Part shown: in pieces, positions 26,271 through 29,145 of the stretch
Layout of the letters: the number at the start of each line of letters is the position of its first letter
Position numbering within the stretch: position 1 is the first letter of the stretch
Virus record (IMG/VR): IMGVR_UViG_3300027747_004524
Coordinates: 58,855 to 122,854 of that record
Strand: one strand, 5' to 3'
DNA from: a virus
DNA length: 64,000 nucleotides
The notes under the pieces: model-generated
The model's input: the letters and a program-made list of their open reading frames with translations, nothing else
What the model was told of the DNA's origin: nothing
Databases searched by the model: none
Made by a program: the position numbers and the translations under genes

Positions 26271-26302
26271 AACCCTGCTGAGCTTGCTCAGCAGGGTTTT
26301 TT
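26271..26302 (+). terminator. Intrinsic terminator
   Basis: AACCCTGCTGAG-CTTG-CTCAGCAGGGTT plus T-tract. Confidence 0.9.
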
Positions 26303-26870
26303 ATTTGTTGTTTTTAGTGCTTTCCATTAGATCTTTTACATTGTCTTTACAGAAGCCATGCTTGCCTCTTTCAATGAATTCATAGATAACACCTGTTAGT
26401 TGACTTGGCTTTGTAAAAACTTGTGTTAATCCTGGACATGTTAGTGGTTTATTTGAGGAGAACTCTGCATAACCCTTTGTTCGCCATTCTTCCATCGTCT
26501 TCTCTACACTTTCTACCTGATATGCTATATGATGAACTCCTCCTACATTGTCTCTTCTAGCAACCCACTGTCCTACTATAGATTCTGGGTCACCGTCTGA
26601 TACGAATATTTCAGGAGGTAAGTGATATTCGGCAAACTTTGTCTCATCAATATCTCTGTTTGTGTTTGGTCCCACGTATTGTCTTATTAGCCAATGTAAT
26701 TCATCAACTACTGGCTTTTCTGGTGGTTCTAGTGCTATGCACTTAGCACAAGTTCCATCTGCAAAGTTAATGTCGAATTCTGTTTGAATTCTATAGCCCA
26801 ATGCATCAATGAAGAATTGGGCTGTTTTTTTTCTATCCAAGGCTCTATATGCAATGTGGTCTAGCCTCAT
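26301..26870 (-). CDS. VOC/glyoxalase superfamily protein
   Basis: LDHIAY, GGVHHIAYQV, QVFT...GVIYEFIER metal-binding motifs. Confidence 0.8.
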   Translation of the reverse strand: MRLDHIAYRALDRKKTAQFFIDALGYRIQTEFDINFADGTCAKCIALEPPEKPVVDELHWLIRQYVGPNTNRDIDETKFAEYHLPPEIFVSDGDPESIVGQWVARRDNVGGVHHIAYQVESVEKTMEEWRTKGYAEFSSNKPLTCPGLTQVFTKPSQLTGVIYEFIERGKHGFCKDNVKDLMESTKNNK

Positions 26871-26922: not shown

Positions 26923-27444
26923 TCAATTATCCAACGACCAATGCATAAAAAGTTTGGTCGTCCACTGGTCAGGCAAACACACCAAATCATCCCGCCAATG
27001 TTCCATAGTGCGGCCCAGCATCATGGCACCATCACCATCTTCAACATTAAGAACAACTGTATTCCCCTTTTTGTCTATGCAATAAAGAGGCCATTCGTTT
27101 GTTAATGTAGACTTTAATGATATTGATAGGGTGTAATCTAACCCAACCCTATCGACATGTTTTTTTAATCGCCCGCCGTTGTAGTAAATTCTTCCGTAAG
27201 TATTAGCAGGCTTTATTTTTATTTGAAGCTTTTTTGCTATTTGTGGTGTTAAGGCTCTTAAATATTGTTCAAACTCCGGGCAGTTTCCTCCATATGATTC
27301 TCCGTAGTGATCGGAGGCACCGCTCTCATGCTTCAGCATGTTTTCATTCTTCATCCGAAAAAGAATGTCCGTAAAATGCTGACAGATAGAAGGAGGTAAT
27401 ATGCCTTTTACATAAACGTAACCAAGATCGCTAAAGTGCTGCAT
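26923..27444 (-). CDS. 2OG-Fe(II) oxygenase
   Basis: RIYYNGG.LKKHVDR (HxD), GDG...G...HWR (distal His plus Arg). Confidence 0.85.
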   Translation of the reverse strand: MQHFSDLGYVYVKGILPPSICQHFTDILFRMKNENMLKHESGASDHYGESYGGNCPEFEQYLRALTPQIAKKLQIKIKPANTYGRIYYNGGRLKKHVDRVGLDYTLSISLKSTLTNEWPLYCIDKKGNTVVLNVEDGDGAMMLGRTMEHWRDDLVCLPDQWTTKLFMHWSLDN

Positions 27445-27466: not shown

Positions 27467-27538
27467 TGGGACGTGAGGGAATCGAACCCCCGACCAAAAG
27501 ATATGAGTCTGTCTCACAGTTTCTCCTTTTGGCGTCCA
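27467..27538 (-). pseudogene. Degenerate tRNA(CAU)-like RNA
   Basis: Minus strand ...ACAGACTCATATCTTTTGGTC-GGGGG-TTCGATT-CCCTC-ACGTCCCA; T-arm intact, anticodon loop one nt short, D-arm absent. Confidence 0.65.
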
Positions 27539-27542
27539 CAAC

Positions 27543-27570
27543 ATTATATGCAAAAATCTTTTTTTTTCAA
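27543..27570 (-). promoter_or_regulatory. Sigma70-like promoter for the tRNA-like RNA
   Basis: Minus strand TTGAAA-16-TATAAT ending just upstream of 27538. Confidence 0.6.
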
Positions 27571-27620
27571 CGTAGCTCAGTTGGTTATTATTTTTTGATT
27601 AGACCATACTATATAAAAGT

Positions 27621-28187
27621 ATGGAATACGATAAGTTAAAGGGTTATCTTGATAAGAACATGACTCTAAGGCAAATTTCAATCGAAAGCAAAAAATGTCT
27701 TGCTTCTGTTCGTTATTGGATGAAAAAACATGGGTTTAAACCTAATTTTGCGAACTTTAAGGGAGGCTATAAACCTGGTCAAAAAATAATTGGCAATGAC
27801 AGATATTGTCCTTCTTGCAAAGTTTATAGAAACATAAACGATTTTTACTCAAGAAGGAAAACTAACTGCACGGGCTACTGTAAGACTTGTATATCTAAAA
27901 AGACTACTGAACGACAAAGAAAAATTAAGAAGGAGATGGTCGAATACAAAGGGGGCAAATGTCAAAACCCGAAGTGCTCCACGCCAGGAGGATATAGTCG
28001 TTCAATAAATGGTTTGGACTTTCATCATATAGATCCTTTGAAAAAAGAATTTAGTATTTCTCAAATAAGGCTTACTAAGATGAACAAAAAAATTAAAAAA
28101 GAGTTGGATAAATGTATTTTGCTTTGTGCCAACTGCCATAGAGAAAGACATGAAGAGCTGCTTCTTGAAAGAAAAAAAAGCACCTGA
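27621..28187 (+). CDS. Free-standing HNH (homing-type) endonuclease
   Basis: N-terminal HTH-like segment, CPSC/CKTC zinc finger, GGKC...LDFHHIDP..K.F.I...ELDKCILLCANCHRE.H. Confidence 0.85.
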   Translation: MEYDKLKGYLDKNMTLRQISIESKKCLASVRYWMKKHGFKPNFANFKGGYKPGQKIIGNDRYCPSCKVYRNINDFYSRRKTNCTGYCKTCISKKTTERQRKIKKEMVEYKGGKCQNPKCSTPGGYSRSINGLDFHHIDPLKKEFSISQIRLTKMNKKIKKELDKCILLCANCHRERHEELLLERKKST

Positions 28188-28193
28188 AAACAG

Positions 28194-28478
28194 TCCGAGA
28201 GGTGGGGCACGATCCCACAACCCACAGATTATGCAATCCACTTCGGCTTTCGCCGCCAGAACTTCTTCTGTTCGTGGTCTGGACTATGCCTTCACCTTTG
28301 TTGTTGCCAACTTTAGGTGGGTGATTATAGTCTCTACACGTTCCCTTTCGGGCTTCGCTCGGCGTTGGGTCGTCCTTTTGAGACAGGCCGTTCACCGAAT
28401 TTACACCTGACTAACCACCCGTTTCCAGATGGCCGACCCGTAAAAGTCTGTTGCTCTAACCAATTGAGCTACTCTCGG
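28194..28478 (-). tRNA. Intron-containing tRNA(CAU), probably tRNA-Ile2; exons 28478-28445 and 28233-28194; no encoded CCA
   Basis: Spliced form CCGAGAG-TA-GCTC AATTGGTTA GAGC-A-ACAGA CT|CAT AA TCTGT-GGGTT-GTGGG ATCGTGC CCCAC-CTCTCGG-A; all four stems pair. Confidence 0.9.
28234..28444 (-). ncRNA. Self-splicing group I intron (211 nt, no ORF)
   Basis: P1 GACU/GGUC with a U.G pair at U33; P AAATTCGGTGAA; Q AACGCCGAGC; R GTAGAGACTATA; S AAGGCATAGTCC; GNRA loops in P2, P6, P8 and P9; terminal omega-G. Confidence 0.9.
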
Positions 28479-28485
28479 AATGTTT

Positions 28486-29145
28486 TCAGACGCTCTTTTG
28501 TGTGATCACCTCTTCAACCAATGACTCAATTTTTTTCTTTGCAAACTTTTCCAAAGACAGTTCGTTTTTTGCCATCTCTGGAATTATTCTTTGACGAACC
28601 CAATTTCTTCTGCTGCCCTTGACTGCAGAGTTGGTTTCGTCCTCTACAATATAATGCTTTAATTTGTTTCTGTCAACGTACTGTTGAAAATCTTTTTTCT
28701 TCGTTAGAAGAAATGGGTGCACAACCTTATAGTTTGGAAATAGACTCCACAAGGGAATTGGTTCGTGATCTGGTTTCCCCCTGAAACAGTTCAGAAGGTA
28801 GCTTTCAATCCAATCGTTTAAGTGGTGGGCCGTTATTAGAATTCCTTCTTCCTCTTTGAAAATAGTAGAATAGAATTCAACTCTAGCTCTTCTGCATTCT
28901 GATTCTGTGTTTAGATTATTGCCATATCCACAAATTCCTTTTATGTGAAATTCTTCGCAAAACTTTTGGAAATTTTTTTCCATTTCATCGTTTTGTTCTC
29001 TGATTTTGTGGTTAAAGTGTACTCCAACAACCTTGTATCCTTTCCACATTAACCAATGCAAAGATGCTAAACTGTCTACTCCCATAGAAACTGTAACGTA
29101 AACAGTTTTTTCTTTGTTGAGTAATTGCTTTATGATCTTTATCAT
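28486..29145 (-). CDS. tilS: tRNA(Ile)-lysidine synthetase, catalytic domain only
   Basis: PP-loop SMGVDS, HFNHKIR, RR.R..F, TAHHLND..ES.LLN, HPFL, DETN, RN.VR..IIP. Confidence 0.85.
   Translation of the reverse strand: MIKIIKQLLNKEKTVYVTVSMGVDSLASLHWLMWKGYKVVGVHFNHKIREQNDEMEKNFQKFCEEFHIKGICGYGNNLNTESECRRARVEFYSTIFKEEEGILITAHHLNDWIESYLLNCFRGKPDHEPIPLWSLFPNYKVVHPFLLTKKKDFQQYVDRNKLKHYIVEDETNSAVKGSRRNWVRQRIIPEMAKNELSLEKFAKKKIESLVEEVITQKSV

Follow-up and report, generated by a model that had tools for sequence, protein, structure and literature searches.

Can a free-standing endonuclease gene that abuts a tRNA gene mobilise an intron that splits the tRNA gene and has no reading frame of its own? 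The question is raised by a 64,000-nucleotide (nt) stretch of phage DNA, positions 58,855 to 122,854 of IMG/VR virus record IMGVR_UViG_3300027747_004524 (hereafter the window, whose own coordinates and strands are used throughout). In it, the gene of a free-standing, 188-residue HNH endonuclease (27621-28187, +) converges on a tRNA(CAU) gene interrupted by a small group I intron. A preliminary description of the locus had proposed collaborative homing, in which the nuclease cuts intronless tRNA(CAU) alleles and the intron immunises the resident copy. Its account of the layout holds: the HNH stop codon ends at 28187, 6 nt from the discriminator base A73 of the convergent tRNA gene at 28194, and the intron, 211 nt long, contains no open reading frame (ORF). 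For the behaviour of the locus we favour, on balance and with modest confidence, a looser reading drawn from sequence comparison, in which the HNH would be a homing-type endonuclease of tRNA genes, housed in a three-part module with a TilS-linked tRNA(CAU) and mobilising the ORF-less intron in trans.

The tRNA gene lies directly behind a TilS-like PP-loop gene (219 residues; 28486-29145, -; Pfam PF01171, E 7e-27) whose stop codon is 7 nt away, and the two together form a TilS plus tRNA(CAU) cassette. With introns allowed, ARAGORN reported a single minus-strand tRNA at 28193-28478, which its default scan, made without introns, missed. The 5' exon (28445-28478, -; ARAGORN -i) supplies the acceptor strand, the D arm, the 5' side of the anticodon stem, C32 and U33; the 3' exon (28194-28233, -) supplies the CAU anticodon, the 3' side of the anticodon stem, the T arm and the acceptor strand up to A73, and CCA is not encoded. 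Because C1-G72 is paired, the anticodon stem lacks GGG/CCC and TilS lies upstream, the split gene most likely encodes tRNA-Ile2. A tRNA(CAU) or an intron-bearing tRNA stands close behind the TilS gene in at least 9 of 80 IMG/VR TilS loci. Across the TilS-sampled phage contigs (L184-L263, n = 80; L numbers denote fetched related loci and X numbers metagenome runs), tRNA(CAU) exons fall into three types, each occurring both with and without introns. The T arm of the window tRNA (28202-28218, -) has the unusual loop ATCGTGC, in which A54 and U58 replace U54 and A58; ATCGT-type loops recur among many unrelated phage tRNAs that we fetched (also in L044, L070, L076, L155 and L177), so this variant is not peculiar to the window tRNA.

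The insert is an ORF-less, 211-nt group I intron with an IC3-like core, lying between U33 and C34 (28234-28444, -). A junction at U33|C34 is the sole splice choice that gives what group I rules demand, a 7-nt anticodon loop, a U at the end of the 5' exon and a G at the end of the intron; it yields the anticodon CAU, and predicted splicing would leave the mature anticodon loop CU-CAU-AA. The exon sequence GACU pairs with intron GGUC to form P1. In a 301-nt search, Rfam family RF00028 (Intron_gpI) matched 28257-28438 over its full-length model with 26.2 bits (E 6e-5), a score below the family's gathering score of 50, and a search of 2.5 kb around the locus returned no intron match. An alignment of nine homologous introns contains 41 pairs, with compensatory changes in 15, and the intron-terminal G is kept in all nine. 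P1 covaries with the host exon, being GACU/GGUC in CAU tRNAs and GCCU/GGGC in Arg tRNAs: the guide GGGUC becomes GGGGC where the exon GACU becomes GCCU in tRNA-Arg hosts. An ORF search found none within the intron, overlapping ORFs crossing the exon boundaries, and 211 nt would be too short for an endonuclease gene. This comparative evidence confirms a genuine, putatively self-splicing IC3-type group I intron.

The intron has also moved between genomes. Homologues occur at 21 IMG/VR loci, found by pattern and used to make our intron profile, and at others besides; the intron of L023 is 94% identical to that of the window. Between the window and L105 the introns are 79% identical and the exons 63% identical, and the exons of each resemble a different intronless tRNA, those of L105 the tRNA of L194 and those of the window the tRNA of L192. 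In run X4 a related intron is joined to a third tRNA(CAU) exon type (the 3' exon of what we call type C). Since one intron family occupies three different tRNA(CAU) exon backgrounds, the sequences indicate that the ORF-less intron has moved among tRNA(CAU) genes, and for such an intron to spread between these genes at one site, a nuclease must act in trans or the intron must reverse-splice. A second class of phage tRNA(CAU) intron is inserted after the anticodon, at 36/37 (L003, L006, L009-L011, L013, L015-L017, L020, L185, L186 and L193), which is also where the Azoarcus tRNA-Ile intron sits. Five loci (L006, L020, L087, L132 and L135) have two intron-bearing tRNAs each. Default tRNA scans overlook all these intron-bearing genes.

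The candidate for a nuclease acting in trans is the neighbouring HNH protein. It matches PHROG phrog_2255 ("HNH endonuclease", E 2.5e-27), and its Pfam HNH match is weak (17.7 bits, E 0.004, under the 21.4 cut-off). Columns invariant in 33 homologues include FHH135-136, N171, H173/H177 and the cysteine ligands C114/C119/C169/C172. An AlphaFold model with a predicted local distance difference test score (pLDDT) of 85 places a helix-turn-helix (HTH) at 3-36, a zinc ribbon at 60-87 and a beta-beta-alpha HNH fold at 132-187; the HTH is N-terminal and made of three helices, the ribbon has the pattern CxxC...CxxC, and the HNH domain, with its zinc cysteines, is C-terminal. Foldseek of the model against the PDB gave nothing significant, the best HNH structures having E values of 0.1-2, and a PDB sequence search with the protein gave a weak match to McrA and nothing else. 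The closest database protein, P0001, is 87% identical. In comparisons with L104 and L105, non-synonymous divergence (pN) is 0.13 and synonymous divergence (pS) 0.72-0.82, which is saturated; the low pN beside saturated pS argues that the HNH has been under purifying selection and kept functional for a long time.

Relatives of this protein are closely tied to tRNA genes. Single-protein scans of viral contigs yielded next to no matches; from 2189 database homologues we fetched 80 viral and 80 metagenomic loci, 142 after removal of duplicates, and a tRNA lies within 100 nt of the HNH ORF in 108 of these 142. Arg(UCU) is the commonest neighbour, and CAU and Asn tRNAs also occur; the nuclease gene is either convergent and abutting, as in the window, or co-directional. 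ORF tails in the family frequently extend antisense into the tRNA 3' end, and several database HNH proteins have C-terminal G-[FIL]-E-P tails that resemble antisense-translated T arms. In the cultured phage Felix O1, three genes interspersed with the tRNA genes are annotated as HNH endonucleases, of which at least one matches this family. Elsewhere a short homologue is encoded inside a tRNA-Asn(GUU) intron of about 555 nt (L157, L159, L160, L170, L176 and L181).

At these tRNA loci the nuclease genes come and go. L185 and L186, otherwise 96-97% identical, differ by a clean 620-bp presence/absence segment that holds the HNH and lies 58 nt past the tRNA. In L106/L107 the copy is frameshifted. 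The tRNA and intron of L023 are 93% identical to those of the window in a homologous block that spans exactly 28188-28479, the TilS proteins being 58% identical, and an unrelated HTH-HNH protein (Pfam HNH_4, PHROG 6050) converges on the L023 tRNA from the same side, 20 nt off. In L196, a fragment of 50 residues resembling the HNH C-terminus (2802-2951) lies just upstream of TilS and is possibly a decayed copy. Patchy presence and absence at a fixed site, in L185/L186, L106/L107, L023 and, with short anchors, the run X2 alleles described below, leads us to assign the HNH, in support of the preliminary description, to the mobile, free-standing, homing-type endonucleases, within a family tied to tRNA genes.

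Does this nuclease travel with the intron? At the same loci, the tRNA closest to the HNH is interrupted by an IC3 intron in 16 of 108 cases, against 7 of 421 other tRNAs (odds ratio ~10; Fisher p 2e-7, in a test that ignores shared ancestry among the loci, which inflates the result). By our count the cases of an intron beside an HNH span about 8-9 lineages: tRNA(CAU) with the intron at 33/34 (window, L104-L107) or at 36/37 (L185), Arg-UCU at 33/34 (L024-26, L108), Leu-UAA (L021), Asn (L087, L100, L178) and others. In all four close relatives of the window HNH (78-85% amino acid identity) the convergent tRNA(CAU) retains its intron at 33/34, and TilS too is retained in L105; the four come from an HNH-based search that by design does not recover HNH-less alleles. 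The arrangement of HNH, intron and tRNA(CAU) has been kept across saturated synonymous divergence. On the window's own contig (122.8 kb) there are three tRNA genes besides the split tRNA(CAU) and a remnant described below, and this HNH family and such introns are represented once each; with so few of each, chance adjacency is unlikely. The HNH has a candidate partner in the intron that it adjoins, and probably, to judge from these sequence patterns, mobilises it in trans.

On the other side of the HNH gene lies a broken intronless tRNA(CAU) of type C (27467-27537, -) that matches the 3' half and flank of an L196 tRNA at 49 of 50 positions. The L196 tRNA is intact, intronless and TilS-linked, and a scan for an intact 5' half of a type-C tRNA found it on the L196 contig alone. 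In the window, 27467-27510 (-) is a true 3' tRNA half, with anticodon loop, T arm and acceptor strand; in place of the D-arm segment stand 22 unrelated nt, and the anticodon loop is short by one A. Homology ends at tRNA position 28/29, 5 nt from the equivalent of the intron insertion site. We considered whether the single nucleotide missing from the anticodon loop marks a former cleavage and rejected this, because the module allele of run X2 has this loop intact.

Run X2, from a different study, contains a unitig bubble whose shared flanks have a depth of 23-24. One path (27482-28556, depth 11.6) holds the module as in the window, apart from the intact anticodon loop of the remnant. The other, an 87-nt unitig of depth 7.5 with anchors of 30 and 21 nt, under the 31-nt bridging rule, joins 28556-28527 to 27502-27482 through 36 nt that restore an intact, intronless type-C tRNA. 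In this short allele TilS is fused to the tRNA 13 codons before the TilS stop, at an AAAATTG that also precedes the L196 tRNA; across the joint (27502/28527) the TilS frame would run through the whole tRNA to a TAA 3 nt beyond, which would give TilS a tRNA-encoded tail of 26 residues. In X2, then, the intronless paralogue is found intact in the HNH-less allele and broken in the HNH-bearing one. In nature, it seems, the module is polymorphic, with X2 suggestively containing both a module allele and an intact type-C allele. Left unused were a third X2 joint (27495 to 28450) and, in runs X3-X5, most of the intron pieces of high depth, all of which came from other tRNAs or introns.

How, under the favoured reading, would a nuclease in trans move the intron? 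During co-infection, the enzyme would nick or cut the tRNA-gene DNA of genomes without the HNH, and repair by recombination from an HNH-bearing genome would copy the HNH gene and the flanking DNA along with it. The copied flank would include the tRNA and the intron, which lie about 50-260 bp from the HNH, and the intron would thereby be mobilised in trans. At this distance the intron would be co-converted whether cutting took place at the intron site or in the T arm.

Several observations weigh against this reading, over and above the limits already attached to the Fisher test and to the anchors of the short X2 allele. Relatives sampled by TilS rather than by HNH show all four combinations: intron with HNH (the window, L185 and L187, the last being the L023 contig with its other HNH), intron without HNH (L186, L193), an HNH that is convergent with and abuts an intronless tRNA(CAU) (L191 and L192, 52-58% identical, and L202), and neither (L184, L188/189, L194, L196; the nearest relative in synteny is L184, whose ClpX is 71% and whose glyoxalase is 80% identical). 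The resulting two-by-two table, about 3/2/2/5, is not significant. The L110 HNH shares 79-81% identity with its counterparts in L025, L026 and L108, and the tRNA-Arg of L110 is intronless with a different anticodon stem; L110, L191, L192 and L202 together imply that the intron is not required for HNH residence. The short X2 allele may be a deletion between two AAAATTG repeats and not an uninvaded recipient, and the long purifying selection on the HNH could mean a domesticated function unrelated to homing. HNH and intron are thus separable, and the link between them is loose and not obligatory. Judged by the preliminary description's own criterion, an independent distribution of HNH and intron, loci with the intron and no HNH (L186, L193) or with an unrelated HNH (L023) leave the two only loosely linked; the family-wide intron excess, the intron-encoded clade and the four close relatives speak for the partnership that it proposed, and the intronless HNH loci and the TilS-sampled combinations speak against it.

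In the strict form of collaborative homing, the HNH would cut intronless tRNA(CAU) at or next to U33/C34, and the intron would split this site and immunise the resident. The layout is that of psbA/F-CphI and nrdB/mobE (PMC3984707), down to the adjacency of nuclease and intron; introns are enriched beside the HNH; the intron-encoded relatives must, by homing logic, target anticodon-loop DNA; and the intronless tRNA(CAU) of the HNH allele is broken at 28/29, 5 nt from the equivalent site, and intact in the HNH-less X2 allele. Yet homologues stand beside intronless tRNA(CAU) (L191, L192), HNHs that are 81% identical stand beside both intron-plus and intronless tRNA-Arg, and the intronless Arg anticodon arm of L029 equals the spliced junction of L026, although the HNHs are 60% identical. 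The 1-nt loop deletion of the remnant, moreover, does not come from the original event, as the intact loop of the X2 module allele attests. We regard this strict form as plausible but less likely than not; cutting at the intron site would fit the remnant's breakpoint, the clade encoded in introns and the excess of introns. The existence of HNH copies beside intronless tRNAs is explained if, by analogy with T4 SegB, which recognises a T-psi-C motif (PMC2330249), the HNH recognises the T arm (GGTTCRANYCC) or the tRNA 3' end, with an odd T loop protecting the resident and the intron a co-converted passenger. The HNH gene does end 6 nt from the tRNA 3' end and about 20 nt from the T loop, and the T loop is non-canonical in all four close-clade tRNAs (ATCGTGC in the window and in L104 and L106; TGCAATT in L105), against a canonical TTCGAGT in the 93%-identical tRNA of L023, which adjoins a different HNH. 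However, non-canonical T loops are common anyway (49 of 406), and their frequency beside the HNH (21 of 102, p 0.04) is inflated by extraction errors; with such loops widespread in phage tRNAs and their enrichment no more than marginal, the case for the T-loop substitution as a determinant of immunity is weakened. The T loops of L191 and L192 are canonical, the remnant beside the HNH keeps a perfect canonical T arm, and the tenfold intron excess would be left unexplained, which makes recognition of this kind unlikely.

Both elements might instead be unrelated selfish elements that tolerate or prefer tRNA loci, with no interplay between them. tRNA flanks offer safe, transcribed landing sites, and each element does occur by itself, the intron in L186 and L193 and the HNH in L191 and L192, with another HNH in L023. 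But the intron-bearing tRNA within a tRNA cluster is preferentially the one adjacent to the HNH, intron-encoded members of the HNH family exist, and the arrangement has outlasted saturated synonymous divergence, so that we give independent residence little credence. It is very improbable that the HNH no longer homes and serves, for example, as a nuclease against host or competitor DNA or in regulation of the tRNA locus, its position being historical. Strong purifying selection (pN of 0.13 against saturated pS) and the single copy on the contig would suit such a role; a scatter of presence and absence in near-identical genomes, together with a frameshifted copy, is characteristic of selfish homing genes, and no link to packaging or to other modules was seen. 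The reading that we prefer, a tRNA-gene homing nuclease whose activity would carry the neighbouring intron along, accommodates cutting at either place.

The intergenic sequence between remnant and HNH gene has features of its own. A sigma-70-like promoter (TTGAAA-16-TATAAT, 11 of 12 consensus positions; 27543-27570, -) faces the broken tRNA and is placed for transcription to start at the remnant's GGACG 5' end. The 72 nt downstream of it fold with -24.7 kcal/mol (z -2.1), and their product would have an intact T arm along with a 5-bp acceptor and a CCAAAAG/CUUUUGG stem of 7 bp; Rfam returned a weak transfer-messenger RNA (tmRNA) match of 17.5 bits in this region. From these sequence features the remnant may be an expressed, D-arm-less tRNA-like RNA and not dead debris. 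Upstream of the HNH cassette lies a conserved region (27564-27620, +) with a promoter-like site aimed at the HNH (TTTTCA-16-TATTAT; 27564-27591, +), whose -10 element is overlapped by a box resembling a tRNA D arm (27574-27590). This box is kept upstream of HNH genes in L104, L191, L192 and the tRNA-Arg group; we had considered it an inverted fragment of the broken tRNA, and rejected this because it is conserved before HNH genes elsewhere and overlaps the -10 element. The two promoter-like sites diverge, with overlapping -35 regions.

Beyond the remnant lie an ORF of 173 residues (26923-27444, -) that matches PHROG 2954, labelled "ferrochelatase" (E 1e-23), and has no Pfam match, and, as the next gene, a glyoxalase/dioxygenase-fold protein (26301-26870), the one that is 80% identical in L184. 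The source record is 122.9 kb long and about 25% complete by CheckV, which implies a phage genome of several hundred kb. The metagenome runs that contain the window locus are from freshwater and lakes, and none of the runs listed for it is an RNA run.

We suggest that the locus matters for how mobile introns arise. Collaborative homing is the foremost proposal for the way in which nucleases and ORF-less introns come to be joined as mobile introns, and the locus carries this proposal to tRNA genes, with one protein family in three states: free-standing beside intronless tRNAs, free-standing beside tRNAs with ORF-less introns, as in the window, and inside tRNA introns. More tentatively, the sequences may mean that this family displays every stage proposed for how a mobile intron is born, anticodon loops being the target throughout, and that the window HNH cuts intronless tRNA(CAU) at the intron site. 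Were that so, it would account for an intronless paralogue that is wrecked in the HNH allele and intact in the HNH-less allele of the same lake population. Candidate donor and recipient alleles co-occur naturally, which opens the pathway to direct testing. Small, putatively self-splicing introns are moreover common in the tRNA genes of uncultured phages. The genes that carry them escape tRNA finders run at default settings, so that counts of phage tRNAs, those of AUA-decoding TilS cassettes among them, come out too low. We know of two collaborative homing systems, both in phage protein genes, and of no more.

The literature describes collaborative, or trans, homing for the psbA intron of cyanophage S-PM2 with F-CphI and for the T-even nrdB intron with mobE (PMC3984707). 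As in the window, a free-standing phage endonuclease lies beside a gene with a group I intron of about 200 nt whose ORF is absent or defunct, and co-inheritance of both elements is expected. The window differs in that a tRNA gene is the host, whereas those hosts are protein genes, in that its nuclease, known from sequence, belongs as an HTH/zinc-ribbon HNH to the Felix O1 tRNA-cluster type, and in that its family is also found beside intronless tRNAs and encoded within introns. Our literature search, of incomplete coverage, found no description of this arrangement on phage tRNA genes. The tRNA-cluster endonuclease as a general kind is already known from T4 SegB, a GIY-YIG enzyme that recognises the T-psi-C motif GGTTCRANTCC of tRNA genes (PMC2330249). 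SegB, too, is a free-standing homing endonuclease amid phage tRNA genes, where it targets tRNA-gene DNA and drives preferential inheritance of the tRNA region; it differs in its GIY-YIG fold, its T-psi-C motif and its lack of an intron, and the window protein, an HNH, is not of SegB type.

The Felix O1 (NC_005282) proteins, of which at least one matches the window's own family with 42% identity over residues 63-172, likewise abut tRNA genes, but are short forms without the N-terminal HTH and have no annotated introns nearby. Among bacterial tRNA introns, those of Azoarcus tRNA-Ile(CAU) and of cyanobacterial tRNA-Leu(UAA) and tRNA-fMet resemble the window intron in being small, of IC3 type and in the anticodon loop (in part PMC3984707), with similar core sequences and, for the CAU tRNA, a similar host. 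The window host, in contrast, is a phage, and its intron is inserted at U33/C34, not after the anticodon. I-Ssp6803I, a PD-(D/E)XK enzyme, is unlike the window HNH in being encoded inside its tRNA-fMet intron (in part PMC3984707). Introns at 36/37, like the bacterial kind that follows the anticodon, occur in phages as well (L003, L013, L185 and others).

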